64,000 nt of DNA from a virus (IMGVR_UViG_3300050821_010764:80801-144800), one strand, 5' to 3'. Positions 1-15,784 are shown, counted from the first letter of the stretch. The notes: generated by a model from the sequence alone, not told the origin. Numbers and translations are program-made.

Positions 1-2862
1 GATCCAAAGGCTAATATCAAGCATATTATTGCTGCCGCTAACACCCTTAATACTTATGTCGAGAACAAACAAAAGGAACTCGACAAGCTAGCAGACTTGA
101 CTTACTCAGCTACTTTGACTGTAAATGACCCTCAAGGACATGAAGGTGGAAATAGCACACAAGTTACAGTCAATGCGACGGACCTTGCTAAATTCAAAGA
201 AGACGTCGAGGCAGCTTTTCAGAAATTGAGTGAAATTAAAAATTCTGGAAAAGATACTACTAATGATACGGCATCTAATCAAGAGCTAGGTACTGTGATA
301 CCAGCCGCTGATTCTGGATTGGCTCCCCCACACGCAAGATATGCATCCGCTGAAGTAGGGGTGGATCCTATTGCTGAACTTCATGAGGTTACTAGAACCA
401 TTGAAGCCAAGCTGAGCCAAATGAAACAAAGCTTGGACAAGTTAGCAAACACTTCTACTACAAACAAACAAGAGGAAAATATGTCTGGATCAAATGAAAC
501 TGTAAAAAAGGGTTATTACCAAGGCGCCGGTGGCGTTAATGAGCCTACCCCTGGTCAGGCAAAATATCCAAAGGATCCTCTTCAAGAGCATCTCCGTGAA
601 AAAGAGGATAAACAAATGGTGGGTCAACCTCCATTTCCAGATGTAGGACCAGTCGATGGTATGCATCCATCCCCAGAATCTGCTGACCAGTCTAATGAGT
701 TAGAGCGTAAAAAGATGCTTGCTCGTGCTGAGTCTGAAGAGAGAGCCCAACGTCGTCAAGCGATTGTTGATTTAGCTAAGAGAACTATTGAAAACAAAAA
801 AACCGCTTGGTTTCAAAATGGTGATGGCAACAACCCAGGAACCCCAACTCCAGGTAAACCAAAATACCCAGTTGATAAACTAGAGTATGTACTTCGTGAA
901 CACGAAGATAAGCAGATGGTTGGACAGAAGCCTTTCCCAGGTGTTGGTCCAGTTGATGGTCTTCATCCATCTCCACAATCCGCTGACACCTCTGATGAGT
1001 TAAAGCGTAAGGAAATGCTACGTAGAGCTGGTTTAATAGCCAGATTCGTTCGTGCTTCCAATAATGATGGTACTGCCAATCTAGGTAATAGTGCTTGGGA
1101 AGTTTATCTTGGTGACAAGCTACTTCTTACTGCCTCTGTCAATGAACTATCTGGTGGACGTGCTGAAGTATTACATGACAGCATTGCAACCCGTGAATTC
1201 GGTGGCAAACTAATTGAGAAGATTAAGACTCATGGTGCAGACAAGATTCGCTCCTTAGTAAAGAGTGGACAACCAGCTCCAGGCGGTGCTCCTCCAGCTC
1301 CAGGCGGTGACGCAGGCGCTCCACCAGCAGGTGGCGATGCCGGTCCTCCAGCCGAAGATACTGGTAAATCCGGTGATCCAAAAGATCAAGCTCTTGCATT
1401 AGCAGAGAAGGGTGTCGAGCTTAGCTCCGACCTTAACGAAGCAGTCAAGGCTATGGTCGGTGAGAAATCCGAAATGGGCGATATGGAAGGCGGACCAGCA
1501 GCAGCTCCAGAAATGGGTGCTTCAGCCTCCTTTAGTACACAAACACTCAACAATTTGAGGAAGGAACTTAATGGCGCGCTAACTCACGCTATGCAAGAAT
1601 CCATTGCTTCCATTAACGATCATGTTGAAGAACTTAATATGATTTCTGGATTATATGATAAGGGCGCAGTAACTGACTCTAACCAAGAGTTCGTTGGCTC
1701 TATCGTTGAAGATGCACTAAGCGAAGCCAAGACTGCAATTGCAGATGGTTTCAAATTGATGAGCGCATTTGTGAAGTACGCCCGTGGTACTACTGCCATC
1801 GTCAAGCGTGCAGAAATCGAGGCAGAACTAGAGGCATTAGCTGAGGGAGAGACTATGACAGGCGAACAAGACGCCAACAATGGCGATGATTTAATGGCTA
1901 TGATCAGCGATACCAATTCAGATTTGGATGCTATCCATGGTCTTATGGCAGATGACAACGCTCATGCCGGCGAAGAGCCACATGACGAGGCACTAGAGGG
2001 CTTACTAGACATGCCAGCAGATGATGCAAATGATCTTAAAGCCGGTGATTTGAAGCCAGAAACTATGCTAGACCCAGCAATGATGTCTCATGCATCTTTT
2101 GATACCAAAGAAGGTCGTCAAGCAATGAGAGCCAAGCTAGCCGCTGACGCTCTTGGCAAGCAAGACGACGGAGAAATCTCCGATATGTCTAAGCAAAAGT
2201 TTAGCGACATGCTAGACCAAGCTGACAAGCTTACTGATGGTCAAACTGACTTGGATACCAAGCCATCTGACAATCTAGGATATGTTGAAACTCTTCCAGA
2301 AGTTAACAAGGCTATGATGGATCTTGCAAAAGCTCCACCAAAGGTCCGTAAGGAAGCAGAAGCTATCCATAACCTAATCTCTGAAGGCAAGCTTCACCCA
2401 TCCGACCTAGACGCTCTAGTAGCAGAAGGTTTGGATAAGGATGCAGTAGCTTACTACAAGAAGTACTGGGCTCAGACTGAAGGTGGCGGAGAATTCGCCA
2501 GTGAATTGGTCAAGGAGCACGTCAAGGCAGACCTTGAGGCAGAACTTAACAAGTACAGAGTAAAGCTAGGACGTTCTTACGAACTAGCATATGACATGGT
2601 TGACCGTGGTTTGTGTCACCACGACAGAAACGCAGTTTCTGCCCAGGTAGATGAAATCATGAAGTTCAATGACGAGTCTTTCGATTCTCTAAAGAGAGTT
2701 GTTGCAAGACACCCAGTAACCAACCTTCGTAAGGAAGGTGGAAGAATGCCACAAGTTGGTATGATCGGTTCTGGTGACCTAAGCACCACACCACAGTCTG
2801 ATGGTGATATGTTTGCACAATTGTCGGCAGCATTTTCTAAGACTTCCAAGAGAAGTTTCTAA
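1..2862 (+). CDS. Prohead protease C-terminal end fused to scaffolding protein (5'-truncated by window edge)
   Basis: Frame is open from base 1 (DPKANIKHIIAAANTL...), so the TTG at 97 is not the true start; 'DPKANIKHII' resembles the (A)DPxA element at the end of herpes/HK97-type prohead protease domains; remainder is acidic, helical, low-complexity; lies upstream of the capsid genes. Confidence 0.7.
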   Translation, partial: DPKANIKHIIAAANTLNTYVENKQKELDKLADLTYSATLTVNDPQGHEGGNSTQVTVNATDLAKFKEDVEAAFQKLSEIKNSGKDTTNDTASNQELGTVIPAADSGLAPPHARYASAEVGVDPIAELHEVTRTIEAKLSQMKQSLDKLANTSTTNKQEENMSGSNETVKKGYYQGAGGVNEPTPGQAKYPKDPLQEHLREKEDKQMVGQPPFPDVGPVDGMHPSPESADQSNELERKKMLARAESEERAQRRQAIVDLAKRTIENKKTAWFQNGDGNNPGTPTPGKPKYPVDKLEYVLREHEDKQMVGQKPFPGVGPVDGLHPSPQSADTSDELKRKEMLRRAGLIARFVRASNNDGTANLGNSAWEVYLGDKLLLTASVNELSGGRAEVLHDSIATREFGGKLIEKIKTHGADKIRSLVKSGQPAPGGAPPAPGGDAGAPPAGGDAGPPAEDTGKSGDPKDQALALAEKGVELSSDLNEAVKAMVGEKSEMGDMEGGPAAAPEMGASASFSTQTLNNLRKELNGALTHAMQESIASINDHVEELNMISGLYDKGAVTDSNQEFVGSIVEDALSEAKTAIADGFKLMSAFVKYARGTTAIVKRAEIEAELEALAEGETMTGEQDANNGDDLMAMISDTNSDLDAIHGLMADDNAHAGEEPHDEALEGLLDMPADDANDLKAGDLKPETMLDPAMMSHASFDTKEGRQAMRAKLAADALGKQDDGEISDMSKQKFSDMLDQADKLTDGQTDLDTKPSDNLGYVETLPEVNKAMMDLAKAPPKVRKEAEAIHNLISEGKLHPSDLDALVAEGLDKDAVAYYKKYWAQTEGGGEFASELVKEHVKADLEAELNKYRVKLGRSYELAYDMVDRGLCHHDRNAVSAQVDEIMKFNDESFDSLKRVVARHPVTNLRKEGGRMPQVGMIGSGDLSTTPQSDGDMFAQLSAAFSKTSKRSF
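481..2862 (+). CDS. Nested in-frame scaffold isoform (internal start MSGSNETVKK)
   Basis: AGAGGAAAAT-ATG Shine-Dalgarno context at 471-483 in frame with the long ORF. Confidence 0.5.
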   Translation: MSGSNETVKKGYYQGAGGVNEPTPGQAKYPKDPLQEHLREKEDKQMVGQPPFPDVGPVDGMHPSPESADQSNELERKKMLARAESEERAQRRQAIVDLAKRTIENKKTAWFQNGDGNNPGTPTPGKPKYPVDKLEYVLREHEDKQMVGQKPFPGVGPVDGLHPSPQSADTSDELKRKEMLRRAGLIARFVRASNNDGTANLGNSAWEVYLGDKLLLTASVNELSGGRAEVLHDSIATREFGGKLIEKIKTHGADKIRSLVKSGQPAPGGAPPAPGGDAGAPPAGGDAGPPAEDTGKSGDPKDQALALAEKGVELSSDLNEAVKAMVGEKSEMGDMEGGPAAAPEMGASASFSTQTLNNLRKELNGALTHAMQESIASINDHVEELNMISGLYDKGAVTDSNQEFVGSIVEDALSEAKTAIADGFKLMSAFVKYARGTTAIVKRAEIEAELEALAEGETMTGEQDANNGDDLMAMISDTNSDLDAIHGLMADDNAHAGEEPHDEALEGLLDMPADDANDLKAGDLKPETMLDPAMMSHASFDTKEGRQAMRAKLAADALGKQDDGEISDMSKQKFSDMLDQADKLTDGQTDLDTKPSDNLGYVETLPEVNKAMMDLAKAPPKVRKEAEAIHNLISEGKLHPSDLDALVAEGLDKDAVAYYKKYWAQTEGGGEFASELVKEHVKADLEAELNKYRVKLGRSYELAYDMVDRGLCHHDRNAVSAQVDEIMKFNDESFDSLKRVVARHPVTNLRKEGGRMPQVGMIGSGDLSTTPQSDGDMFAQLSAAFSKTSKRSF
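514..1029 (+). repeat. Two ~72-74 aa protein repeats (PTPG..KYP.D..LRE.EDKQMVGQ.PFP.VGPVDG.HPSP.SAD.S.EL.RK.ML.RA)
   Basis: Copies at 514-729 and 808-1029 visible in the translation. Confidence 0.9.
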
Positions 2863-2888
2863 GAACTAAACAACTAATAGAGGATACT

Positions 2889-3773
2889 ATGACTAATAAA
2901 AGTGTATCAGATTTTGTCGCTGCAACCATGGATGCAGTACTAAAGAGCGCAGAGCACAAGGCTTTGTTCGGCACCCAATACAAATATGCTTCGGATGAAA
3001 ACGATGCAAAGTGTTCAAAGTGTGGCAAGGATGCTTGCTCATGCGGTGACACCGGTATGGCAGATGACAATGAAGCAAAAAAGAAGATGCCACCTTGGCT
3101 AAAAGATAAGAGTGACTCTGCTAGTGCGGACGATCAAGATGCCAAGAAAAAGAAAGACTCTTCTGGTGATTCTTCCAGTGCTTGGGATGACAACGATGCT
3201 CGTAAGAAGAAGGATTCTTCCTCTTCCAGCAGCGATTCAGCCAGCGCTTGGGATGACAATGACGCCCGTAAAAAGAAGGACTCCTCTGGTGATTCTTCTA
3301 GTGCAGATGATAACGATGCTCGCAAAAAGAAGGAAGAATCTTCTAGCTCCAGCGATTCTTCTAGCGCAGATGATTTGGAAACTTCCGCAGCATTTGATGT
3401 TGCTATCGACAGCCTATTGACTGCTTCCGCAGCTCTTGACTCTGTCGGTATGGAAAAGTCTTCTGCATTCAGTTTGAAGCTTGCTTCTTTGGTTGTTGAA
3501 GCCAAGAAGAAGGACAAGGATTCTAAGAAGAGCAAGAGCGATTCTAACGATGCTAAGGATAAAGCCAAGGCAAAGAAAGAAAAAGAGCTAGCCGCCGAAA
3601 AGAAGAAGAAAGAAAAAGAGAAGGCTGATGCTCAATCCGCTAAGGATAAGGCTGCCAAGGAAAAAGAGAAGGAAAAGGCTAAAGCAAAAGCAGATAAAGA
3701 CAAGGCTGATGCTCAAGCTGCTAAAGATAAAGCTTCCAAAGAGAAGGCAAAATCATCTTCTTCTAAGAAGTAA
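2889..3773 (+). CDS. Highly charged low-complexity head/core protein (CxxC-x4-CxC, DDNDA-KKK-Ser repeats, Lys/Ala-rich tail)
   Basis: GAGGA RBS; 294 aa ORF directly after scaffold; composition. Confidence 0.6.
   Translation: MTNKSVSDFVAATMDAVLKSAEHKALFGTQYKYASDENDAKCSKCGKDACSCGDTGMADDNEAKKKMPPWLKDKSDSASADDQDAKKKKDSSGDSSSAWDDNDARKKKDSSSSSSDSASAWDDNDARKKKDSSGDSSSADDNDARKKKEESSSSSDSSSADDLETSAAFDVAIDSLLTASAALDSVGMEKSSAFSLKLASLVVEAKKKDKDSKKSKSDSNDAKDKAKAKKEKELAAEKKKKEKEKADAQSAKDKAAKEKEKEKAKAKADKDKADAQAAKDKASKEKAKSSSSKK
3058..3375 (+). repeat. Coding tandem repeat, about six units of (A/W)DD(N/Q)(D/E)A(R/K)KKK(D/E)S-Ser run
   Basis: Imperfect ~55-63 bp units, in frame. Confidence 0.85.
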
Positions 3774-3796
3774 TTAACTTCCAATAAGAGGATATC

Positions 3797-4024
3797 ATGT
3801 TTAAAACAGCCAGTTTCGAAGAAGAGATCTATCGTTCAATGGAAAAGAAATTGGTGTCAAACCAATTAGAAGAGAAGCATGGATTTACTAGGCTAGCTCA
3901 AGCTGCCGACTATCTTAATGCTGCCGCTGAAATTTTTGATCAAGCTGGTATGACCGAACAATCTGAAGAAGTAACAGAGGTCTTGCAGGGATTGGCTCAA
4001 CAGCTATCCGGCAAGACTTCTTAA
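3797..4024 (+). CDS. Small putative head protein, paralogue of 4036-4461
   Basis: GAGGA RBS; shares FE(E/D)..M...L and A.DYL.AAAEIF...GMT with the next ORF. Confidence 0.7.
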   Translation: MFKTASFEEEIYRSMEKKLVSNQLEEKHGFTRLAQAADYLNAAAEIFDQAGMTEQSEEVTEVLQGLAQQLSGKTS

Positions 4025-4035
4025 TTTGAGGAACC

Positions 4036-4461
4036 ATGATCAAGAAAAGCGTTTTCGAAGATGATTTAATTGCCGGGATGCAGAGAGAACTGCAAGCTCA
4101 TGATAAAAAACAAGGTATGCAAAACCTTGATAAGGCAGTGGACTATCTTCAAGCTGCGGCAGAAATTTTCGAAGAGACTGGCATGACAGCTAAAGCCGAC
4201 CAAGTATTGAAAATTCTACTTAAAATTGGTCAAGAAAAAACCCCTCCTCATCCAAAGAATCCTGCTAATGTCAGTGATAGACATACTAAAGGATTAACCT
4301 CTGAAAAGATGGTAGCTAATCTAAAAGACCATGGTTCTATGTTTAATATGGTAGATGATGGTGCAGCTGATGACCTACTTAATATTGATATAGATGACAA
4401 AGGGTTAGAGGTTGCCGAGGGCGAAAACTCCTACGAGAAAACCTTTGAGGATAGTGACTAA
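4036..4461 (+). CDS. Putative head protein, paralogue of 3797-4024
   Basis: GAGGA RBS; AVDYLQAAAEIFEETGMT motif. Confidence 0.7.
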   Translation: MIKKSVFEDDLIAGMQRELQAHDKKQGMQNLDKAVDYLQAAAEIFEETGMTAKADQVLKILLKIGQEKTPPHPKNPANVSDRHTKGLTSEKMVANLKDHGSMFNMVDDGAADDLLNIDIDDKGLEVAEGENSYEKTFEDSD

Positions 4462-4501
4462 TTGTTATATACTGAGTAGGTATAGTTAGAAAAAGGCATC
4501 C

Positions 4502-5191
4502 ATGCTCAGACTAGTACAAGTAGGTAATACACTTCCAGCCAGTTTTATCGTTGATCCATCCGCTGAATTTCAGCCTGGACAGATTGCTGAATTAACCGTT
4601 ATCGGCAACCAAGTGATGGCAACCGTTAGTAACGGTACTGCCCCTATTGGTGTCATTGACGATATCAAAACCAAAGCATTTACTAACGTCTCTTGGAACG
4701 AAGTTGTTATCGTCCCAGCCGTAGGTGTTCCGGGTCCGGGCGGCACATTAGTTACTCCGGTTGATATCAAATCAGAATTAAAGAAACCTAATATCATTCC
4801 ATCCAGTTTCAACTCTACCGTTAACGTAGTGTTGAATCCAAATAATGGTGTTATTACTTTCGTAGCTGGTACCTCTTTGAATTTCGATTTAATGGGTACT
4901 GGACAACCAAATGCCATTAGAACTATTGTTAATTATACTTATCAAGTAGCTAATATTCCTGGTGATGATAGTACTCAAGGCTCTGGTAGAATGACCGTTT
5001 GGTTTAACAGAATGTTTTTCCAGACTGATCAATATGAGACTAATCAACAGTATCCTGTCAGAGCTAATTTGTATGTTAGTGAGGTAGGATTTTTGACGAC
5101 TAGAAGACCTAGCGCTATTCATCCGGCAGTGGCAATGGTAACGGCACCACCTACTCCTATGAATCCGATGATCGAAGTTCTTTGGTTTTAA
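4502..5191 (+). CDS. Capsid decoration/cement-like protein (paralogue of 11825-12541)
   Basis: Beta-rich; MLRLVQVG..GQIAEL / GSGRMTVW matches MSLKLLQPG..GEIVTL / GSGKVTCW. Confidence 0.55.
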   Translation: MLRLVQVGNTLPASFIVDPSAEFQPGQIAELTVIGNQVMATVSNGTAPIGVIDDIKTKAFTNVSWNEVVIVPAVGVPGPGGTLVTPVDIKSELKKPNIIPSSFNSTVNVVLNPNNGVITFVAGTSLNFDLMGTGQPNAIRTIVNYTYQVANIPGDDSTQGSGRMTVWFNRMFFQTDQYETNQQYPVRANLYVSEVGFLTTRRPSAIHPAVAMVTAPPTPMNPMIEVLWF

Positions 5192-5281
5192 ACCCTCAAT
5201 ATTACTGCATATCCTTTTATTTAGAGAGAAGCTTTCTATATTCCAGCATATTATAGACGAATCTATCGATAGAGGATAAAA

Positions 5282-6544
5282 ATGACTTTTAAACACGTGA
5301 AATTTGAGGATTCTGCGGTAATGCGCTCCCTGGAAAAGGTAGCCTCCCAAAAAGGTTTGGTTAAGTCCGATCCTCTCAAGAAAACCGCATCCAAACAAAC
5401 TGATTTGTTTCCTACTACCAATTTGACGGAGAACATCCTCAAGTTGTGCGAAGGTTTGAGACATCAAGGTTTCAACAAGTATGCCGATGAACTAGAAGAT
5501 AAATTCGTCGTTTACAAGCAAGCTGCGGCTGCTACTCTTTATGAAACCTCGCCTGAAGAAGGAAAAGATTTAGTAGATGCCGCTCATCCAAAGGGTAGCC
5601 ATCATCTTGAGGGTCTTGATAGCGATGAAGCTGTCATTGAGACCATTTTGGACCAACACCTAAAGGATACTAAGGTAGTAGAGAAAAAACCAACTGGCAA
5701 ATTGTCATCTTCTCGTGATATTTTAAGAGCTGTCAAATTTGTTTTAGCTCAAGAAGTAACGGAAGAGCAACTAATCCCAGTACGTGCTGAGAGAGCCATC
5801 GAGCAATTAAAATCTGTTCTTGGCATACTTGGTCAGTCTCGTACTACTATTTTGAACAAGATGAATACTACCACCCTGGCTAAATCTTTTGATACCAACT
5901 ACAATGAGATTGCTAATGTAGTTAACGCTCTCACTCCAGAGACCATTAGCATTAAAAGTATTGACAGTGTTATTGGAGATTTAGGTGACATCCAAAACTC
6001 TATTGATTTCTTCAACTGGAAAGATTTAGGAGTTCTGATTCCAGGAATTGGATTTGCTTCATTGCTACAACATGTCGGTGATTTTACTGACATGGCTACG
6101 GGAGATTGGGATCAAGCCCTAAGAGATAAAATGACCGGCTTCGTAAATAAAGCTAAGGCTGCGGCGAAAAAAGCCCGTGCTTTTATGCGTGGTGAAGCTG
6201 ATGCCGAAGTAAAAGAAATGGCAGCCAAGAAAAATGCACCACTTACCATTCCAACTGTTGAAATAAAGGCAGGACCATTAAGTTCGTATTTTGGTCAAAT
6301 TGCAAAATTAAAGACTCAGCTCAATACTTGGAAAGCGTTCCGTTCAATTTCCCAGAATCCAGAAGCAATGAAATGGATTGCAGAAGAGATTGCTGCTCTT
6401 GATGATATTGATAAAAGATATGACGCTCTACCAGAAGATCAAGAAGCCGGCGCTGCTAGTGAAATGGGCAAAGAAGTAAACGAAGAGGCTCAAAATATTA
6501 ATCAGTTCCAAGCAGACTGGGTTAGTGCTAAACCTAGTGCCTAA
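5282..6544 (+). CDS. Putative internal head/ejection protein with hydrophobic segment
   Basis: GAGGA RBS; DAAHP motif shared with 10468; LGVLIPGIGFASLL hydrophobic stretch; helical C-terminal half. Confidence 0.5.
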   Translation: MTFKHVKFEDSAVMRSLEKVASQKGLVKSDPLKKTASKQTDLFPTTNLTENILKLCEGLRHQGFNKYADELEDKFVVYKQAAAATLYETSPEEGKDLVDAAHPKGSHHLEGLDSDEAVIETILDQHLKDTKVVEKKPTGKLSSSRDILRAVKFVLAQEVTEEQLIPVRAERAIEQLKSVLGILGQSRTTILNKMNTTTLAKSFDTNYNEIANVVNALTPETISIKSIDSVIGDLGDIQNSIDFFNWKDLGVLIPGIGFASLLQHVGDFTDMATGDWDQALRDKMTGFVNKAKAAAKKARAFMRGEADAEVKEMAAKKNAPLTIPTVEIKAGPLSSYFGQIAKLKTQLNTWKAFRSISQNPEAMKWIAEEIAALDDIDKRYDALPEDQEAGAASEMGKEVNEEAQNINQFQADWVSAKPSA

Positions 6545-6554
6545 GGGTAAAGAT

Positions 6555-7820
6555 ATGTCAAAATCATCCGCCAAAGAAATATTGGACTATATTGAAAAGT
6601 ATGGTCGAGGCAGACCACCTCCGAAGCCGGGGGCAGGTTATGTGGCGTCCCCTACACCAGCACCATCTACTAAAGCTCCAGCGGGTGCAACGCATGCTCC
6701 TCCAAAACCTGGACAACATGTGCCATCTGGTGGCGGATCTGCAAGTAGTCCTGCGATCAAAGACATGCAAGAAAAGCTAGTTGGTTTATCTAAGTTAGTT
6801 TTATCTCAGCTTAATATTGAAAACATCGCTAAACAAGATGATTTGCGTCAAGCTGGCGAAGCCGCTCATCGAGATTCGTTCGGAGATTTCGTCGTTAAAA
6901 ACTATCTAAGACCTGCGGGTGGCGGAGCCCAAGAGTTTGATCCAAGTGAAAGGGTAACTGATGTTGCCAAAAAGCAACCTTCTACACCAACCAGAATGTA
7001 TTCTATCATGAATACCATGTCAAGAATTGGCGGACCAAAAGCTGAATTTAAACCAGATGGTGTCTGGGGACCAAGAACTAATCAAGCTCTTCATAATACA
7101 AAAGCCTTTGCAGAAGCCATGCTAAAATTATCCAAAGACTTTGAGACGCCAGTTAAGTCATATACTTTATCTGACCTAAAAAACTTCGCACTTCCAGATA
7201 AAGAAACTGACCTATCGCCACAAGATCGTGCTAAGTCAGCTTCAGTATTGGCTCAGCACATTCGAGCTATTACTAACATGTTTCATGAAATCAAAGAAAA
7301 CATTTTAGAGAATCCTCAGCATCAAGCCTCTATTGAGGGTGATACTCCATATGCTGTTATTGGAAAAGGCAAGGAAAAGCCAGGCGCCAAACCAGAACAA
7401 GCTCCTCAACCACTTACACCACAAGCTATTGCCTCCTTACAAACTAGATTTAAAGATGGTTTTCCAATCTTGTTTACTGATCCACAAACAAACAAAGGTA
7501 AAACCGTACTAGTTTTTGTGCAAGATTTAGTTAGCCCAGATGCATTTCAAGGATGGATGTATAAGCAACAAACAAATCAAGATCCGGCTAAAATTATAGA
7601 ACAAGTTAAAGATAGATTGGCTGGACGTCCAATTAAGCCACTACCAAGAAGATATGAAGACACTCTTTCTCCAACTGATAGAGAGCAATTTTTCAAGAGA
7701 AATCCAGACCTAAAAAAACAATACAATAAAGAAGTGGCAGAAGAAGCAGCAGATCAAGCAAAACAAGAACAAGGAATGGCACAACAAAGGACAGAAATGT
7801 CTGGGAAAGCTGGAGCATAA
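6555..7820 (+). CDS. Putative internal virion protein with peptidoglycan-binding-like motif
   Basis: ATG at 6555 after AAGGG; Pro-rich linker; DGVWGPRTNQAL resembles the DG-x-x-G-x-x-T motif of PG_binding_1. Confidence 0.5.
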   Translation: MSKSSAKEILDYIEKYGRGRPPPKPGAGYVASPTPAPSTKAPAGATHAPPKPGQHVPSGGGSASSPAIKDMQEKLVGLSKLVLSQLNIENIAKQDDLRQAGEAAHRDSFGDFVVKNYLRPAGGGAQEFDPSERVTDVAKKQPSTPTRMYSIMNTMSRIGGPKAEFKPDGVWGPRTNQALHNTKAFAEAMLKLSKDFETPVKSYTLSDLKNFALPDKETDLSPQDRAKSASVLAQHIRAITNMFHEIKENILENPQHQASIEGDTPYAVIGKGKEKPGAKPEQAPQPLTPQAIASLQTRFKDGFPILFTDPQTNKGKTVLVFVQDLVSPDAFQGWMYKQQTNQDPAKIIEQVKDRLAGRPIKPLPRRYEDTLSPTDREQFFKRNPDLKKQYNKEVAEEAADQAKQEQGMAQQRTEMSGKAGA

Positions 7821-7822
7821 CG

Positions 7823-9346
7823 ATGTCTTTTATTTATGATGACTCAAATCTTATTAGCGATCTGATCAAAAGTGGTTTGGATTTTGAATCCAAATTCACT
7901 AAGGAGGGTCAAGCTACGGCTGCTGCTAATTCAGATTTTCAGAACATCACTACTGTATTGGACAACCTTCAAAAAGCAATGCCTTCGCCAGCCGGTGCTA
8001 CTCCAGCAGCAGCTCCCGGAGATGAGGCAGATCCTAATGCTCTTCCAGAAATTTCACATGTTGGTGCTGGCAAACCTGGATCACAGGATCCTAAACTTAC
8101 CAGTGCCAATTTAGAGGGCTTAGGTGCATTAGCAAGTTGGGCAGCGGGCAATGCTATTACTGTAGATGGAAAGCGTATAGCCTTTTCTTCAAACGAAGTG
8201 CAGGACGCCCCAGGAGAAGATTATCAACTATATAGGCTTGAGCCGAATGCTGGTTTATTAGAGGTCGGTGATAGGTCTGTCGTTAAGCAGGGGTTCTACA
8301 TCAATAAAGATTTATTGGTAAAATTCATTACGTGGAGACTGGCTGTTCTATCTCAAAAACCAAACATGGTAGAAAAAGTACAGTTAGGTAAATTGATTGC
8401 CGATGCTAATAGACTCCTGGGTACTAAAATTAGTCCAGAGTATAAAGCTCCAGAAGCAACCCTGTCACCAAATACACTTATTGATGAACTACCTGGTGTT
8501 ATCGATGGGAATAACCCAATGAATAATGGTGCTAAGCAACTATTTTTCAAGGACATCCAGTCTGACACCGCACTTAATGCATGGCTCAAGAATGCGCCAA
8601 TGACATTTATGAAAACCAAAGACAAAGACGTTCCCGCATATCCGCCCAGCAATGAGTTTGATATGTGTGTTATCGTTAAAGTTCTATGGACCAGAGCTAA
8701 TGTCTGGTCTACTCGTGCACCAAGTGATGCAGAGAAAAAGAAGTTTGTTGTTTATAAGCGTCAAATGGAAAAGCTAGCTCCAACTATTACCGGTGCCAAT
8801 GGCAAAGCTTGTCAATTAGCTGGGGCGACTCCGCAACCAGGTGCTCAGCCAAATCAAGTTAATGCTCCCGCTATTGCGCAAGCCATCAGCACTCTGCCAT
8901 TTAACATTAGAGATATCAATTTCAACAGAATTAAGAAATTCTTTGAAGTCGTTAAACCTCTCATGGAAAATGTACCAAACAACGAAGCCGCCATGGCACA
9001 CATGACTAATGTGGAAGAAACATTGATACCACAAGCTTTCAATTTGCTAGCTGTTAAAGATGGTATCATCCCATTGGGCGAAAGAGTTCATCAATTTGCA
9101 GGCAGACTAAGCAATCAACAAGAGCCGGGCAAACAAGTATTTCCATTGATCTCAGCTTTAGATAGAATTCTAGATGAGACTCGTGCAGTAGTGGAGGCTT
9201 TCTGGTCCGCTTATGGCGACAAGGTCAATTCTGGTCAACAGGCTCAGATTCTGGGTCAAATCGGCAGAAACCCAAATGACAGCTCTATCTATAGTAGAAA
9301 TGCGGACGCCCTTGAAACCTTAAGAACCTCTGGAACTGTAACCTAA
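7823..9346 (+). CDS. Hypothetical virion (inner head) protein
   Basis: 507 aa ORF tightly packed in head operon; FTKEG/Q motif near N-terminus. Confidence 0.5.
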   Translation: MSFIYDDSNLISDLIKSGLDFESKFTKEGQATAAANSDFQNITTVLDNLQKAMPSPAGATPAAAPGDEADPNALPEISHVGAGKPGSQDPKLTSANLEGLGALASWAAGNAITVDGKRIAFSSNEVQDAPGEDYQLYRLEPNAGLLEVGDRSVVKQGFYINKDLLVKFITWRLAVLSQKPNMVEKVQLGKLIADANRLLGTKISPEYKAPEATLSPNTLIDELPGVIDGNNPMNNGAKQLFFKDIQSDTALNAWLKNAPMTFMKTKDKDVPAYPPSNEFDMCVIVKVLWTRANVWSTRAPSDAEKKKFVVYKRQMEKLAPTITGANGKACQLAGATPQPGAQPNQVNAPAIAQAISTLPFNIRDINFNRIKKFFEVVKPLMENVPNNEAAMAHMTNVEETLIPQAFNLLAVKDGIIPLGERVHQFAGRLSNQQEPGKQVFPLISALDRILDETRAVVEAFWSAYGDKVNSGQQAQILGQIGRNPNDSSIYSRNADALETLRTSGTVT

Positions 9347-10417
9347 ATGACCCTAACCAATAGTGAAATCAAACTATATAATGATATCCTGATAGCAGAA
9401 ATTATCCTATCAGATACCAATGGTTTGTCTAAAACGGCACAAGAGGGTGTCGCTTCACAATTGATTAGTAAAGTTCATAGTTACGTTAGTAACAACATTA
9501 ATCCAGAAGATAAAACTGGCAGTTTACTTAACATGCTGGCTCCAGGTGCCATTACCGTTCTTTTTAGAGCATTAGGTTTGGGTTGGTTAGGATTTTTGTT
9601 TGGTATCGCTATGAGGGTATTTCATATTGACGTTGCCAGTATTATTGAATCTATTTGGAATTCTTTGAAAAGTGAATTGAGTGGCGGGAAGCAAATGACT
9701 TCTGCTCAAGTAGATAATATCGTCAATAGTGCAGTAGAAACTCATACTAAACCAGCTACCCAAGAAGAGGCTGAAAAAGCCTCTCAAACTTATCAACTAC
9801 AATCGGTTAATTTTCGAGATGCTAAGATGTTGAAACTAGCATTAGCAGATTATGCTTTGTTAGAGTGCGGCATTATTAAACAGTCTGGAATTTTAGACAT
9901 TTTCAGTTCTCAAAAAACAAAGACAGCCTCTATTTTGTCTAGGGTGCTCAGTCTATTTTTCAAGGTGGCTTTAGCCTCTGCTGCTGCCATGGTAGCCGGA
10001 GATGTCATCAACAAATTTTTAGGAAGACCTAATGCGCTGGATGACACCATGCAACATGGTAAGCCGGTGGGTGAACAAGCTACCGCTCCTGCGGTTATTT
10101 CTAAGCAGACCAAGTTTAAGGTTAGTCCATCTTATCATGATACTCCTAAGGGAGGTAATTGGATAGAAAATGTTTCTAATACTAAAGAAGGTATTCAGGA
10201 TATGTTAACTAGATTTACCAAAGAAGTATATCCAGATACCGGTAGTATGGATGGTGTTATTAGAAGTACGGCTGGATTTCAAGCCATTGTAGATAATATT
10301 CTATGGCACAATCATACTTCTGCTGGCGGACCTATTGTTTTTATTCCGCCCATGTTTAGTTCTAAAAAAATGTTGGTTGACCACTTCATCGACGACGTGG
10401 CGGAAAAAGCTCCCTAA
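9347..10417 (+). CDS. Putative membrane-associating internal virion protein
   Basis: Hydrophobic segments MLAPGAITVLFRALGLGWLGFLFGIAM and VLSLFFKVALASAAAMVAG. Confidence 0.5.
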   Translation: MTLTNSEIKLYNDILIAEIILSDTNGLSKTAQEGVASQLISKVHSYVSNNINPEDKTGSLLNMLAPGAITVLFRALGLGWLGFLFGIAMRVFHIDVASIIESIWNSLKSELSGGKQMTSAQVDNIVNSAVETHTKPATQEEAEKASQTYQLQSVNFRDAKMLKLALADYALLECGIIKQSGILDIFSSQKTKTASILSRVLSLFFKVALASAAAMVAGDVINKFLGRPNALDDTMQHGKPVGEQATAPAVISKQTKFKVSPSYHDTPKGGNWIENVSNTKEGIQDMLTRFTKEVYPDTGSMDGVIRSTAGFQAIVDNILWHNHTSAGGPIVFIPPMFSSKKMLVDHFIDDVAEKAP

Positions 10418-10467
10418 TCAGGTGATATGAGAGCATATAATTACACTTTCCATATGGTGAGAATATA

Positions 10468-11715
10468 ATGAGCAGAAGCGAAATTTTTGATGCATTTGTC
10501 AAAATAGCCCAAGAAAAGGGCATGATCTCCAATGATTCCAGCGACTCCAAAAAGAAGCTAGAACAGACAGGTCGTGCAGACTCTTTGGATATTTCTGCCA
10601 TTGAGGCTTTATATGGTGTGAAACCTAATACACCTAAGGGTTCTGATTATAAAGACAATATTATGGAAGCTGCCCATCCAAACTCGGTAGTGGTAGCACC
10701 ATCTTACGACAAGCTTAACGGTCTAGTCGAGAACAATATCGAAAGACAGAACATCATTCTTCACATTGTTCAAAAGACTCCAGACGGATTGCAGACTCAA
10801 CGTAAATATGCGGAACAAGAATTGCTTCTGTCTTTGGTACGTATCGGTAATGATCTAGATAATCGTGATGAAGATCAATTGCGTGTATTGGCAGATTCTT
10901 GCCTATTACAACTAAAAAAAAACTCTGAAGGCTTCAAGAAAGAAGCTATCGGTCCATTAGCTATTGCCTTAATTGCAGCCGCTGTTATTGGTGCAATTTA
11001 TGCGCATCAACATTTAGCAGATGCTAATCATGGAATGATGCAAGCAACGCAAAATTTACAATCAACTCTTAGTAAGTTTGCAAGTAGCAGTGTAGATTGG
11101 GGTGTAGGTCATGAATATGATCAAGATCTTAAATCAGATGTTCAAGGATTAAAAGACAGAATCGATTTGTTTTCTCAAACATATCAATCATTGGAAGCTA
11201 TTATCAGAGAACTAGAAAGACCAAAGGATGCAACTGAGTTAAAGCAGATTGCTGCTCAACCAGAATCACAACAAGTGGTAGCTGCATACAATAAATTGTA
11301 TGAGCTAATCACGAATATGTCTGCCTATATGGATAAGATTGAGACTGATTTTAAGTCAGAGTTCTATAAGACTCGTCACACTAAAGATACGGGAGTTCTA
11401 ACCAAAGGTTTAGAATGGGCTCATTTAGAGGGCGGAACTACTTCTTTGTTTGCCGATCCTTTCCAAGACGTAATGAATGCCATTCCTCCATTCAAAGAAA
11501 ACGTTAAATCGCTTCTTGATATGTTGAAGGAAGCTAAATCCAGAGAAGCTAAGGCGCGTGCCGAATTACTAGCCGCTCAATCTAAGGCTAAAGAAGAATA
11601 TGGCAGTGGCGCTACTACCAGTTGGGATGATAAATCCCATGAAAAAGAGCCAGAATCTCATGTTCGTAAGCTAGAAGAGGACTTAAAGGGTCTTATTCCG
11701 GCTGGGATGAGATAA
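10468..11715 (+). CDS. Putative internal virion protein with one TM helix and coiled-coil
   Basis: EAAHP motif shared with 5282; IGPLAIALIAAAVIGAIYA TM segment directly after FKKEA. Confidence 0.55.
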   Translation: MSRSEIFDAFVKIAQEKGMISNDSSDSKKKLEQTGRADSLDISAIEALYGVKPNTPKGSDYKDNIMEAAHPNSVVVAPSYDKLNGLVENNIERQNIILHIVQKTPDGLQTQRKYAEQELLLSLVRIGNDLDNRDEDQLRVLADSCLLQLKKNSEGFKKEAIGPLAIALIAAAVIGAIYAHQHLADANHGMMQATQNLQSTLSKFASSSVDWGVGHEYDQDLKSDVQGLKDRIDLFSQTYQSLEAIIRELERPKDATELKQIAAQPESQQVVAAYNKLYELITNMSAYMDKIETDFKSEFYKTRHTKDTGVLTKGLEWAHLEGGTTSLFADPFQDVMNAIPPFKENVKSLLDMLKEAKSREAKARAELLAAQSKAKEEYGSGATTSWDDKSHEKEPESHVRKLEEDLKGLIPAGMR

Positions 11716-11824
11716 TTTTTATCAAAATCTGGTAATAACAGAATATGCTTTGTAGATTTAGTAAGAAAAAGTGTAAGTAACTTATCGCAGACAAGGTCTC
11801 GATATTATAATTTAGGAAACTAAA

Positions 11825-12541
11825 ATGTCTTTAAAACTATTGCAACCAGGCGTCCAACCACTAGGTCAATTTGACGGTTATGACTCCGATTTCTTGACTC
11901 TTAAGGGCGGTGAGATTGTTACACTCATTTCCGTTCCAGTGCCAGGCACTGATCACGCAGCTGCTGACTCTTTTGACGGATACGTCAACCCAGGTAGCGT
12001 GCAAAAACGTCCAGTTGTGACTCGTAACGTCGCAACCACCAAGCGTCCTTTGATGCTTTCTGATGATGGTATTACTGGCTACGGTACTCTATTCGGAGCC
12101 GTTGTTGGTGGAACTGTTGGTCAGCAAGTAAATGGACCAACCACCTTTACTGGTGCGCTTCTAGGACCTCACACTGCAACTGGTTCTGGCAAGGTAACTT
12201 GCTGGGAAAAGCCAGGTCTATATGCCGTCTCTCTTGATGCATGTGACACTGATGCAGTAACTGGTTTGCAACCAACCAACACCACTCTTGATGTTGGCGC
12301 TGCTTTGACCTTCGTTCCTGCTCTAGCCCTTGGTGGTCAATTGACTCCAGTGGGTAGCACCGCAGCCGCAGGTAACACTGTTGTTGTTGCTCGTCTAGTC
12401 GACTTCGAAACCAACGGATCTTTGGTAACCACTCCAAACAGACTAGTTGCCGCTCTAAACAGCCCATCTGGTTTGGTCAGCTCTGTCGGTCCTCGTCAGT
12501 TCGCCTTCGCAACCTTCTACTTCAACCCACCAGTTGCCTAA
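11825..12541 (+). CDS. Capsid decoration/stabilising protein
   Basis: Immediately upstream of MCP; AGGA RBS; Gly/Thr/Val beta-rich. Confidence 0.65.
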   Translation: MSLKLLQPGVQPLGQFDGYDSDFLTLKGGEIVTLISVPVPGTDHAAADSFDGYVNPGSVQKRPVVTRNVATTKRPLMLSDDGITGYGTLFGAVVGGTVGQQVNGPTTFTGALLGPHTATGSGKVTCWEKPGLYAVSLDACDTDAVTGLQPTNTTLDVGAALTFVPALALGGQLTPVGSTAAAGNTVVVARLVDFETNGSLVTTPNRLVAALNSPSGLVSSVGPRQFAFATFYFNPPVA

Positions 12542-12562
12542 GTTAGTTGCTTAAATAATTCA

Positions 12563-12629
12563 AGCGTTTCGTGGATTAACTTTCACAAAACGCTCTATCA
12601 CACGCAAGTGTGTCGCTGGTAAGACTGGC
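12563..12629 (+). promoter_or_regulatory. Structured 5' leader of MCP (three consecutive hairpins)
   Basis: AGCGTTT..AAACGCT (12563-12594), CACAC-GCAA-GTGTG (12599-12612), GCTGGT-AAG-ACTGGC (12615-12629). Confidence 0.5.
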
Positions 12630-12654
12630 AAATAATTCCACTAGGAGACGATTT

Positions 12655-13668
12655 ATGAATATGTTTAGCAACCAAGGCCAAATGAATGCCTCATCCCTTA
12701 AGGATGCACTACAAACTCTTGTTAAGTATGCAGCCGTTCTTGAAGAGAACACTCCATCTAACATGGGTCTTGCAGGACAAACTGCCCTAAGTGATGATAA
12801 GCGCGATGAATTGATTTCTCGCGCTATTATGACTCAAGATGGCAAGATTGCTCTAGCTCAGGCTATGGCAAACCCAATCCGTAGAAACTTGGATTACCAC
12901 GGTATCGCACGTCGTGCCTTGGTCGTTGACCCACTACCACAAGGTGCAATGCCAACTTACGATAGAGATATCGATGTTGCTGCTGTTGTTATCTCAAGCA
13001 ACGGTACTGGTCCAGAGTCCAGAGTATTCGGCGACAGAGTTGTCGTTCCAGAATTCGAAATCTATGCAAACCCAACGGTGAGAATCGCTGAAGTTAAGAG
13101 ACGTAGATTTAACGTAATTGACAGAGCAGTTCAGAAGGCTCGTCAAGAAATCATGGCTCAGGAAGATGCTAACATCTTCGCAGCTCTTGATGCAGCAGCT
13201 TCTGTTGAAAACGTCCTAACCGACATCGCAGATGCAGGTCTTCTAAAGAGAGACCTTGTCGAAATCAAGCAACAAATTGATCGTTGGGACTTAGTTACTA
13301 CTAAGTACTTCATGAACATCAATGAGTTCACTGATATCCTTAAGTGGGGTTCAGGTGGTGGACAAGGCGTAGGCGGCGGAGATTTCGATCCTGTCACTAT
13401 GAGAGAAGTTCTACAAACTGGTCTTTACGCCCACATCTGGGGTACTGACATCATGGTTTCCAAGATCGTTCCACCAGGAACCATCTACGGTGCCGCAGAC
13501 CCTGAGTTCGTTGGTGTTATGCCAATCAGACAGGACATTGAAGTGCTACCAGCAGACGAGCCAAAGCAATTGAAGCTTGGATGGGTAGTTTCCGAGATCA
13601 TCGGTATTGCTATCGTTAACCCACGTGGTTGCGCAGCAGGTCGTAAGTCTGTCGTAATCGGAGCCTAA
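12655..13668 (+). CDS. Major capsid protein (HK97 fold)
   Basis: AGGAG RBS then ATG 12655; ~337 aa; LAQAMANPIRRNLDYHGIARRAL..PLPQG, VVPEFEIYANP.V.I.EVK.RRFNVIDRA, E.IGIAIVNPRG pattern typical of large-phage MCPs; followed by strong terminator. Confidence 0.9.
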   Translation: MNMFSNQGQMNASSLKDALQTLVKYAAVLEENTPSNMGLAGQTALSDDKRDELISRAIMTQDGKIALAQAMANPIRRNLDYHGIARRALVVDPLPQGAMPTYDRDIDVAAVVISSNGTGPESRVFGDRVVVPEFEIYANPTVRIAEVKRRRFNVIDRAVQKARQEIMAQEDANIFAALDAAASVENVLTDIADAGLLKRDLVEIKQQIDRWDLVTTKYFMNINEFTDILKWGSGGGQGVGGGDFDPVTMREVLQTGLYAHIWGTDIMVSKIVPPGTIYGAADPEFVGVMPIRQDIEVLPADEPKQLKLGWVVSEIIGIAIVNPRGCAAGRKSVVIGA

Positions 13669-13691
13669 TAAGCCTGATTGAATAAAGTTCA

Positions 13692-13725
13692 AAATCCCCT
13701 CTTAGCGAAAGCTAAGAGGGGATTT
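13692..13725. terminator. Bidirectional intrinsic terminator between MCP and convergent CCA gene
   Basis: Perfect 15-bp stem AAATCCCCTCTTAGC-GAAA-GCTAAGAGGGGATTT with A/T-rich flanks. Confidence 0.9.
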
Positions 13726-13731
13726 CTATTT

Positions 13732-14973
13732 CTACTGTCCTGCCGCGAAGTCCAGCAAGAAGCTCTTGTTATTGTTGTCCGGATTTCTCAGAATTTCCAA
13801 ATAACAAGCTTCCAAAATGGATTTAATTTGCGGTCCCGGCTTGATGCCGATAACCAGCAAATCGTCTCCATTTAATTGCATTTCGCGCTTGGCGAAGACA
13901 GTTTCGCTAACGTATTTGCCGAACTGCACCCTAGAGTTGATTTCCATAGCCTCAGTCAATCGTATAAATTGGTCAAAGGTATAGTCCCAGGGGTCAGGGG
14001 CATGGTTCTTAATGACCGCCATAAAGCTCTTATAAGCCAAAGGCGTGTCCTTCTTAAGGAATTCATTATACCTGTCCAAAAGGCTCAGTAAGAAAGTGAC
14101 TCTTTTGATTTCTTTATTAGGAAACTTTAAGAATAACAGTTCTGCCTGTACCTGTTCGACTGGGCACATGCCATACATAAATGCCAAGCGAGTTTCTAGT
14201 TCCTCTTGACATTTATCTAAGAAGGGCAAGAAGTGCATATAGACATCTCGGCTACAGAGGAATGGACAAGCCACTGCCAATGCACCCGATTGTTGAAGCA
14301 GTTGAATCCCATACGAAGGATCCTTCGTCATCAAGGTTTTGCACAACTCATCTTGAATACGTTCCTTGGAAACCTTCTTCAAGGTTTCAAGGCTGCTTTT
14401 CATTCCAGTAAAAGTAGGAGATTCCACCGCATAACCAAAACGAGCGGCGAATCGTGCAACTCGCATGATTCGGAGTCCGTCTTCTTGGAATCTAGTTTCT
14501 GGATTTCCAACTGCTCGAATAATTCCTTTGTGTAGGTCTTCTAATCCACCATAAGGATCGACTAAACGATCTGCAATAGGGTCGTAGGCGATAGCGTTGA
14601 TGGTCAAGTCTCGTCTTGCCAAGTCTTGTTCCACATTGAGCACAAAGAAGACTTCTTCTGGACGTCGTCCGTCCTTGTATTCTCCTTCGATGCGAAAGGT
14701 GGTAACTTCGAAATGATTTTCGACACCTGGACCCATCACTACCGTGACAGTTCCGTGCTGCAAACCCGTGGGAATGGTCTTAGGAAATAATCCAATGACT
14801 TCTTGCGGGCTAGCATCCGTGGTAATATCCCAATCCTTGGGGGTTTGACCAAGCAGTAAGTCGCGCACACACCCACCTACGATGAAGGCTTGGTAACCTT
14901 CCGCGCTCAGGACGCGGCACACCTCGAAAGCTTGAGGATTGACGTGTTGTTGCGAAATTTGTACGTTTAGCAT
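13732..14973 (-). CDS. cca: Class II tRNA nucleotidyltransferase (CCA-adding enzyme), no HD domain
   Basis: GGCVRD..DWD (DxD), EVTTFR, DLARRDLTINA, FQEDGLRIMR (EDxxR), SKERI motifs; flexible loop YKDGRRP present. Confidence 0.92.
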   Translation of the reverse strand: MLNVQISQQHVNPQAFEVCRVLSAEGYQAFIVGGCVRDLLLGQTPKDWDITTDASPQEVIGLFPKTIPTGLQHGTVTVVMGPGVENHFEVTTFRIEGEYKDGRRPEEVFFVLNVEQDLARRDLTINAIAYDPIADRLVDPYGGLEDLHKGIIRAVGNPETRFQEDGLRIMRVARFAARFGYAVESPTFTGMKSSLETLKKVSKERIQDELCKTLMTKDPSYGIQLLQQSGALAVACPFLCSRDVYMHFLPFLDKCQEELETRLAFMYGMCPVEQVQAELLFLKFPNKEIKRVTFLLSLLDRYNEFLKKDTPLAYKSFMAVIKNHAPDPWDYTFDQFIRLTEAMEINSRVQFGKYVSETVFAKREMQLNGDDLLVIGIKPGPQIKSILEACYLEILRNPDNNNKSFLLDFAAGQ

Positions 14974-14980
14974 GTCACCG

Positions 14981-15008
14981 AACGTAAATCTTTAAAAATT
15001 GCTGTCAA
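14981..15008 (-). promoter_or_regulatory. Sigma70-type promoter for cca (probably leaderless transcript)
   Basis: TTGACA-N16-TACGTT, 7 nt before ATG; no obvious SD. Confidence 0.65.
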
Positions 15009-15037
15009 GGGTTGCGGATATTTATCCGGGGCAAGTG

Positions 15038-15052
15038 TAATAATACAGCATA
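15038..15052 (+). promoter_or_regulatory. Putative late promoter TAATA-N5-GCATA
   Basis: Example of a motif recurring in >10 intergenic gaps. Confidence 0.55.
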
Positions 15053-15079
15053 ATATTGAACTACACCCGAAAGAAGAGC

Positions 15080-15784
15080 ATGAAACTAGACACCATTTCA
15101 GAGCTATATCAATTAATTTCTAGCGGAACTCAAAATCTTCCAGCTAGAAAACAATCTATTCTGCTAAGAAAAGCGGGTCTTGCTGCTCATGTGTCTGGCA
15201 CAGGTTTTAATAAAGTAGCTTTTGATACCAGACGTATTGATCAAGAAACTGAATATAATCCTCGTCGTGGTTTACAGAATTACAATCGAAGTGAAGCTTT
15301 TCTTTCCGAAGCTATGGGACAAAAACTTATTCATCTATCTAAACTCAAGGGAGTGCTAGATGATTTGAAGCAAGAATTTGGTAAAGAACATGAATGGCAA
15401 GACAGTAATGCTCGTGTTCTTTTATCTACACTTGATCAGGGTATGCGCACTCTTCAAAAAGATGGTGACTACTCCGATGCCCAGCCGTCTCAAGGCAGCA
15501 TTGATTACATTGAAGAGCTATTGCATGTTAGATATAGACTTGGTCTGGATGATTTAACAAGGCTTGGTAAATCTGAATTGAAGAAAGTAATTCTATCTAA
15601 AGATGAAGAGATGACTCGCAAAGATGTTAATCGCGCCTTAGAAATTACTAAGAGTGATGTGGGTTCTCAAACTTATGACACTTTGATGGAAAAGTTGTTC
15701 GGAGGTGTCCGTGCAACTCAAGAAAACCCTGAAGTGGAGAGAACGGTCACGATTACGATCAAAGACAAGTTTGTGGAGAAGTAA
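15080..15784 (+). CDS. Hypothetical protein (possibly head-associated)
   Basis: ATG 15080 after AAGAAGAG; carries LRKAG and FNKVA motifs. Confidence 0.55.
   Translation: MKLDTISELYQLISSGTQNLPARKQSILLRKAGLAAHVSGTGFNKVAFDTRRIDQETEYNPRRGLQNYNRSEAFLSEAMGQKLIHLSKLKGVLDDLKQEFGKEHEWQDSNARVLLSTLDQGMRTLQKDGDYSDAQPSQGSIDYIEELLHVRYRLGLDDLTRLGKSELKKVILSKDEEMTRKDVNRALEITKSDVGSQTYDTLMEKLFGGVRATQENPEVERTVTITIKDKFVEK

Follow-up and report, generated by a model that had tools for sequence, protein, structure and literature searches.

By what signal might a phage G-like megaphage choose the proteins to be trimmed in its maturing head? The question is raised by a 64,000-nucleotide stretch of viral DNA (here called the window), which comprises bases 80801-144800 of the 144.8-kb IMG/VR contig IMGVR_UViG_3300050821_010764 (genome completeness about 34%). 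Judging from its sequence, the window carries a head-assembly module and its source is an uncultured phage G-like megaphage; a nucleotide-level search against 50,697 phage records gave no match. The original prediction for this locus was that short motifs of the form [FLIVMY]-x-K-x-[AGS], seen in almost every head-region protein, are read by the prohead protease, which would recognize Lys at P3 and a small residue at P1 and would trim propeptides from a whole set of internal proteins. The motifs listed in that prediction are all present in the genes named. We consider it fairly probable that a narrower pattern, [L/F/I/M/V]-x-K-x-[A/G], is the recognition and cleavage signal of the module's own prohead protease, with cutting as a prediction. 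Positions below are those of the window unless the contig is named.

Enrichment and specificity of the motif

Motif counts were compared with composition-matched shuffles within each protein (2000 shuffles). In 13 head proteins, 45 matches to [FLIVMY]-x-K-x-[AGS] were observed against 24.4 ± 4.8 expected (z = 4.3), and none of the 2000 shuffles reached 45. Comparatively, the 40 tail-side proteins had 42 matches against 42.8 expected, and 100 upstream proteins, which are equally rich in Lys, had 133 against 117. The enrichment over tail genes and shuffles that had been predicted is thus present. When each of the 20 residues was tried at the middle position, K alone was enriched (z = 4.6) and E, R, D and Q were not. 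Therefore, a generic amphipathic-helix periodicity or a composition effect was rejected as the origin of the motif.

We pooled 22 conserved sites. P5 was L, F, I, M or V, P3 was K in 99% (R in 1%) and P1 was A in 85%, G in 14% and S in 1%. The constraint was limited to P5, P3 and P1, that is, to alternate residues, a spacing that we would expect of a peptide bound as an extended strand. Ser, which the prediction had allowed at the last position, was rejected on this 1% and dropped, giving the refined motif [LFIMV]-x-K-x-[A>G]. With the refined motif, 36 sites were observed in the head proteins against 15.8 expected (z = 5.2) and 15 in the portal-to-phosphatase block against 6.5 expected (z = 3.5). 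The tail proteins had 22 against 26.3 expected, and the equally Lys-rich upstream genes showed no excess. The position of the sites was also biased: a site ending at residues 8-60 was found in nine of the 13 head proteins, against 2.0 expected, and in two of the 40 tail proteins. K-Y-[AG] was tried as a sharper core and rejected, its 22 occurrences being scattered across the whole contig.

A prohead protease fused to the scaffold

The window opens inside a large open reading frame (ORF), which had been described as the scaffold.

1..2862, plus strand: window part of the protease-scaffold fusion (1188 aa; the ORF starts at contig 80096, window -704)

That description suits the region beyond about residue 250, where the remaining ~940 residues are scaffold-like. 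However, the ORF also holds the protease: it begins 704 bases before the window, and residues 1-~250 are a prohead protease domain. Residues 34-247 match gp19 of phage G (33% identical, E = 9e-29), which is annotated as a head maturation protease (PMC12484599), and the family phrog_18299 'head maturation protease' matches the domain with E = 1.2e-14. Searches with Pfam models, the HK97-type protease model included, gave no match. PDB sequence searches, run with the protease sequence and with a profile of it, gave nothing meaningful and no detectable similarity to T4 gp21, and therefore the fold had to come from structure prediction. An AlphaFold2 (AF2) model built from 29 homologues, with a predicted local distance difference test (pLDDT) score of 72, was closest to T4 gp21 (5jbl; Z = 8.7, 131 residues aligned, root-mean-square deviation 3.4). 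Herpesvirus proteases gave Z values of 6-8; such Z values are moderate, and unrelated MCE barrels reach 6-7. D131-H132, S183 and E227 were invariant in the 29 homologues, as read from the alignment and not from a residue-wise superposition on the catalytic residues of gp21.

The gene order is terminase (contig 70732-72639), portal (contig 72716-74599), five genes, the protease-scaffold ORF, nine head-region genes, a decoration-like gene (11825) and the capsid gene (12610/12655-13668), after which come a minus-strand tRNA nucleotidyltransferase gene, gene 15056 and the fibre and tail genes. The protease gene thus lies between the portal and capsid genes and is fused to the scaffold, as expected for prohead proteases. 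According to the model, the N-terminal domain is an assemblin-fold prohead serine protease of the T4 gp21/herpesvirus type, with predicted proteolytic activity. With the homology to gp19 and phrog_18299 and the gp21-like fold, the postulated enzyme is present, partly outside the coordinates from which it was postulated.

The fusion contains the following motif sites.

79..93, plus strand: LDKLA-D, fusion residues 262-266, abutting the 3' side of the protease domain
433..447, plus strand: LDKLA-N, kept in 68% of homologues
499..513, plus strand: TVKKG-YYQG; K-x-[GA]-Y[YF]QG in all homologues shown
1255..1269, plus strand: LVKSG-Q, fusion residues 654-658, kept in 95-98% of 61 homologues
1768..1812, plus strand: FVKYA-R and IVKRA-E, fusion residues 825-839, kept in 87% and 100% of 61 homologues
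2344..2358, plus strand: VRKEA-E, fusion residues 1017-1021, kept in 97%
2725..2739, plus strand: LRKEG-G, fusion residues 1144-1148, kept in 92% and preceding the variable C-terminal tail

The first site is kept in 80-84% of 55 homologues and is followed by an indel-rich variable stretch; its sequence and place make it a candidate self-release site of the protease. The sites at 433-447 and 499-513 flank a conserved internal Met at 481, and a YFQGGGGVNEPTPG-type module comes next. At 1255, the residue after the motif is Q in 59 of 60 homologues, and a Pro/Ala/Gly-rich variable linker follows.

Three further features of the fusion were noted. The Met at 481 is an in-frame ATG with a Shine-Dalgarno-like AAGAGGAAAAT upstream at a 5-base spacer (460-483), and nearly all homologues keep Q-E-E-x-M around it at the protein level. 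By analogy with lambda C/Nu3 and herpesvirus UL26/UL26.5, it could be a nested start for a scaffold-only product. The scaffold has two copies of a Y-[YF]-Q-G-G-G-G-V-N-E-P-T-P-G module (499-560 and 793-860), each immediately 3' of a K-x-[A/G], and YFQGGGG is also found at the extreme N-terminus (MGNKRA-YFQGGGG) of an unrelated 364-aa protein encoded upstream of the terminase (contig 67792-68886). Within the protease domain (contig 80096-80900), residues 193-216 form an insertion with a conserved cluster of C193, C196, C207 and H209, which in sequence looks like a small zinc-binding loop.

Conservation of the sites in divergent head proteins

Three IMG/VR scans gave ~240 related loci. Identity among them is 89-99% for the capsid protein but only 20-65% for the other head proteins, so that conservation of the motif is informative. 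The divergent head proteins keep the motif as an island of conservation, in most cases 14-85 residues in from the N-terminus and followed by variable linkers that behind many sites are rich in indels and often in Pro or Gly. On average, K sites were retained in 62% of homologues, while the same pattern with other polar residues was retained in 37% (Mann-Whitney test, P = 4e-5), which bears out the expected conservation. Most of the sites listed in the prediction were kept in 79-100% of homologues; MIKKS (68%), MFKTA (75%) and IIKQS (78%) were lower. For QYKYA, VYKQA and TVKKG, conservation of the K-x-A/G core was scored by eye only. MFKTA and MIKKS begin at residue 1 and are doubtful cut sites. 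Roughly half of the raw matches were not conserved, and the unlisted matches VLKSA, MSKSS, VVKQG, LSKFA and LQKDG were dismissed as chance on the conservation in homologues.

2976..2990, plus strand: QYKYA-S, in the K/D/S-rich protein of gene 2889-3773
4216..4230, plus strand: LLKIG-Q, gene 4036-4461, at the end of a conserved N-terminal domain; kept in 84% of 25 homologues
5330..5524, plus strand: LEKVA, LKKTA, FNKYA and VYKQA, all within the N-terminal 81 residues encoded by gene 5282-6544
6591..6605, plus strand: IEKYG-R, gene 6525/6555-7820, residues 13-17 from the Met at 6555
7895..7909, plus strand: FTKEG-Q, gene 7823-9346; kept in 79%, flanks 31% identical
9425..9439, plus strand: LSKTA-Q, gene 9347-10417 (membrane-helix protein); kept in 93% of 41 homologues, flanks 38% identical
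10495..10509, plus strand: FVKIA-Q, gene 10468-11715, residues 10-14; kept in 100% of 48 homologues
10933..10947, plus strand: FKKEA-I, gene 10468-11715, residues 156-160; kept in 94% of 50 homologues, flanks 42% identical
15164..15220, plus strand: LRKAG-L and FNKVA-F, gene 15056/15080-15784; kept in 86% and 100% of 50 homologues

At the first of these sites, Y-K-x-A-[S/A/E] (mostly S) was seen in 12 of 12 homologues shown, and P5 is not hydrophobic. A long indel region follows LLKIG. The sites of gene 5282-6544 were kept in 80-100% of 15 homologues, VYKQA being scored by eye as Y-K-[QR]-A-Q. IEKYG was kept in 95% of 20 homologues against flanks that are 32% identical, and a Pro-rich variable linker comes next; after FTKEG the next residue is Q in 18 of 19 homologues, followed by a variable linker. 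The portal protein has MNKSA-Q at residues 80-84, kept in 94% of homologues and lying upstream of the region that can be aligned to the phage G portal. The sequences place the motif at the end of N-terminal peptides of 14 residues in gene 10468, 17 in gene 6555 and 26 in the capsid protein. The first two would have the length of a T4-type capsid-targeting sequence (~10-20 residues), and the capsid peptide is somewhat longer.

PHROG and Pfam searches with the ten proteins from the large ORF/scaffold to gene 10468 gave no family match. Only genes 3797 and 4036 were detectably paralogous, and paralogy was therefore rejected as the source of the motif.

Two proteins of the module are free of the motif.

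4502..5191, plus strand: 0 motifs, Lys 2.2%, beta-rich; 56-93% identical in 69 homologues
11825..12541, plus strand: 0 motifs, Lys 2.5%; immediately 5' of the capsid gene, where phage G has its decoration protein gp26

Both are Lys-poor, beta-rich and decoration-like. The product of the former is likely an external or decoration protein and serves as an internal negative control.

The capsid N-terminus

12655..13668, plus strand: major capsid protein (337 aa; phrog_2522, E = 1e-77; 54% identical to phage G gp27)
12718..12732, plus strand: LVKYA-A, capsid residues 22-26 as counted from the true start; 98-100% of 56 homologues keep it

The true start of the capsid protein is the Met at 12655 and not the GTG at 12610, as the homologues begin at that Met and are 337 aa long. 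In the AF2 model the motif lies in an N-terminal helix (residues 15-31, pLDDT 40-60), residues 31-43 are disordered and the confident fold begins at about residue 45. The annotated gp27 of phage G begins at the position equivalent to residue 42, with no room upstream for an extension, and lacks the motif segment. Thus the capsid segment is dispensable for the fold, as a propeptide would be. The close capsid homologues are too similar to be informative, and a search of 50% clusters revealed that the capsid site is only partly retained over a longer range.

Another clade of the capsid family (the distant relatives P0141, P0146, P0149, P0164 and others) has a conserved N-terminus of its own, M-[DN]-R-Y-x-I-x-L-G-K, followed by a poly-Pro/Lys linker, which may be a different propeptide or cleavage signal. 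A 258-aa protein encoded upstream of the window (contig 51577-52353; L005:10577-11353) contains a near-copy of the capsid N-terminal module, SLKEALQTLKKYA compared with SLKDALQTLVKYA in the capsid protein, and then a domain 35% identical to scaffold residues 1039-1142. It may be a second scaffold-like or capsid-mimicking protein.

Phage G as an independent test

Phage G, a 498-kb Bacillus megaphage that is grown on Lysinibacillus, is the closest cultured relative, with capsid, portal (gp14) and protease (gp19) proteins 54%, 35% and 33% identical, respectively. It has the same gene order (gp14 portal, gp19 protease, gp26 decoration, gp27 capsid). The refined motif was not derived from phage G, which hence provides an independent test. 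In gp11-gp21 (portal to scaffold) we found 17 sites against 7.1 expected (z = 3.8, P = 0.0015), and in gp22-gp57 16 sites against 13.2 expected. N-terminal sites occur in the portal gp14 (MAKQA, residues 16-20), gp13, gp17 and gp20, and gp19 has LEKVA and LLKIA 3' of its protease domain. The motif enriched in the present module is thus also enriched in gp11-gp21 of phage G. The two phages differ in that the protease of phage G is a separate 300-aa gene and in that its annotated capsid protein is without the N-terminal extension.

It could be argued that the motif has no specific function and results from Lys/Ala-rich helical composition, shared N-terminal ancestry and post hoc choice of the pattern. 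Head proteins are indeed rich in Lys and Ala (8.2% and 10.5%), the pattern was derived from the same proteins, and about half of the raw matches are not conserved. However, shuffles that keep the composition still left z values of 4.3-5.2, no other middle residue was enriched, the equally Lys-rich upstream genes had no excess, conservation exceeded that of matched control patterns, and the refined motif was also in excess in the head block of phage G, on which its definition did not draw. We regard an absence of function as very improbable.

Proposed cleavage and its alternatives

The enrichment, Lys specificity, position and conservation of the motif, and the identity and fold of the protease, are observations of this study; that the motif is cut at all is what we infer. 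The carriers that would enter the prohead are the capsid protein, the portal, the scaffold and seven or more other proteins, whose genes lie at 2889-11715 and 15056-15784. Before cutting, the short N-terminal helices ending in the motif would act as capsid-targeting or docking peptides, as in T4. Once the prohead had assembled, the protease inside it would free itself at LDKLA from the scaffold, which it would also cleave at some seven other conserved sites. The capsid, portal and internal (probably ejected) proteins would each lose an N-terminal propeptide of about 14-85 residues.

The scissile bond, also inferred, could be in either of two places: after Ala/Gly or after Lys. With Ala/Gly at P1 and Lys at P3, the sites would resemble the release and maturation sites of herpesvirus assemblin (pUL26 family), which are of the V/L/I-x-Ala|Ser type. 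With Lys at P1, a hydrophobic P3 and a small P2', they would have the exact spacing of the T4 L/I-x-E sites (a hydrophobic P3, any P2 and a charged P1), and the cut of HK97 at K103/S104 is a precedent (PMC10275583). If the cut is after Lys, it would be invisible to standard tryptic proteomics. The proposed prohead-protease code with Lys at P3 and a small P1 stands in part. Enrichment, conservation, a protease of the right fold with the motif at its own C-terminal boundary, and decoration-like proteins free of the motif all agree with it, but its register is only one of the two.

Several observations weigh against cleavage at the motif. Fully conserved matches also lie within folded domains, namely protease residues 32-43 (one with Pro next), ILKWG of the capsid protein, LVKIG of the portal and the terminase; cutting is implausible there, and the motif alone is thus not sufficient. 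AF2 places the capsid and protease-boundary motifs in helices, and the predicted scaffold fragments are large (~100-270 residues). In distant capsid relatives, the homologous 26-residue N-terminal module keeps K-x-A in ~11 of 18 lineages and has R in 3, and the PaBG capsid protein is without the site. The pattern was defined post hoc on the same proteins, so that phage G is the sole independent test. The literature covered, which leaves out the capsid paper of Gonzalez et al. 2020, gave no mature N-terminus, fragment size or protease assay for the phage G-like group.

The helical models favour an alternative in which a docking peptide with the motif at its conserved end is left uncut. N-terminal amphipathic helices would then stay bound to the scaffold, the inner capsid surface or the portal, and Lys and the small residue would be contact residues rather than determinants for a protease. 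Residues i and i+4 fall on one face of a helix, such as those modelled for the capsid and protease-boundary motifs. Moreover, the N-terminal segments of genes 5282 and 10468 are alike beyond the motif, and the capsid N-terminal module with K-Y-A recurs beside a scaffold-like domain in another protein of the contig. Yet only three alternate positions are constrained, while the remainder of each helix varies freely, and a single docking site is inadequate for a motif that recurs at many internal, linker-flanked places in the scaffold and after the protease domain. We consider uncleaved docking unlikely, and the T4 precedent combines docking with cutting (PMC9026906), so that the two are not exclusive.

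The strictness of Lys (99%, with R in 1%) would also fit a lysine-directed enzyme. The motif might be read by a lysine-modifying enzyme acting on head proteins, or else by a protease of the host or a second one of the phage, ClpP and ClpX being present in phage G virions. However, no such enzyme was identified in the 144.8-kb fragment, for which detailed annotation covers the portal-to-tail part only. The motif also falls precisely on the border of the protease domain that the module itself encodes, and its distribution tracks membership of the prohead. Recognition by another enzyme is therefore improbable, and cleavage by the module's own prohead protease is the reading that we retain.

Comparison with known maturation systems

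In T4, the capsid-targeting sequences of the internal proteins IPI-III end in the L/I-x-Glu site of gp21 (PMC9026906). The gp21 system resembles the present one in its fold, the best structural match, in the many motif-bearing head proteins, in N-terminal peptides ending in the motif and in a scaffold with several sites. Unlike in T4, the key residue here is Lys rather than Glu, a small residue is also required two positions after it, the protease is fused to a ~940-residue scaffold, and cleavage is predicted from the sequence. In phiKZ and SPN3US, gp175 and gp245 cut many internal proteins at S/A/G-x-Glu and A-x-Glu, with the sites mapped by mass spectrometry (PMC10052503). These are likewise giant phages with many internal, probably ejected head proteins, one short motif and several copies per propeptide (PMC10052503), but their cuts, which have been mapped, are after Glu, whereas the motif here is Lys-based and only predicted.

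The gp4 protease of HK97, which cuts the capsid protein at K103/S104 (PMC10275583), shows that a capsid maturation protease of a phage can have Lys at P1. It differs in removing a 102-residue scaffolding domain from the capsid protein alone. We know of no multi-protein cleavage motif in HK97. Herpesvirus assemblin shares the fold class, the in-frame fusion of protease and scaffold, a (here predicted) self-release site directly after the protease domain and, if the originally predicted register is right, Ala at P1. In contrast, the herpesvirus consensus has no required Lys, and its only two sites lie on a single polyprotein and not on several separate substrates.

Our literature search turned up no publication that states a Lys-x-Ala rule for a phage protease. 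On balance we lean, by a small degree, to the view that phage G-like megaphages use an assemblin-fold prohead protease with a Lys-dependent specificity that has been described for no phage, and that the motif is a readable code. If this is true, the code would predict from sequence alone the proteins that the head takes up, the places at which they are trimmed, and the short peptide that could bring in foreign cargo. Only a few phage groups, namely T4, phiKZ/SPN3US and HK97, have a known proteolytic maturation code, and megaphage head proteins are almost all unannotated. Phage G-like megaphages are widespread in environmental metagenomes, with hundreds of contigs of up to 480 kb, and a verified code would define from sequence the head cargo of this globally common group. 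It would also reveal how substrate specificity has diverged within the assemblin fold, and the only megaphage in culture would gain a packaging tag. Phage G, in which the same motif is enriched, offers a direct test of the prediction.

Other features of the module

The interval between the portal and protease genes encodes two further proteins of note (contig 75966-77210 and 78400-79173): one matches an SLT lytic transglycosylase weakly (E = 1e-3), and the other is a phosphatase of the dual-specificity or tyrosine type (PF13350, E = 7e-8). The SLT-like protein and the phosphatase are candidates for packaged enzymes. The product of gene 2889-3773 is 294 aa long with 21% Lys and has repeats of the type DDNDA-RKKK-DSSSSS and a CxxC...CxC cluster 3' of its conserved N-terminus; it may be a DNA-condensing internal protein. 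The tRNA nucleotidyltransferase gene (13732-14973; phrog_2244, E = 1e-69) separates the capsid gene from gene 15056 as an insertion on the minus strand, opposite to both. Finally, the tail and fibre proteins encoded at 15788-49010 have only 0.4-3% Lys, compared with ~8-9% in the head and upstream proteins. Genes 36023, 36848 and 37657, for example, have 0.4-1.0%, and the Lys deficit of the tail and fibre proteins is not compensated by Arg.

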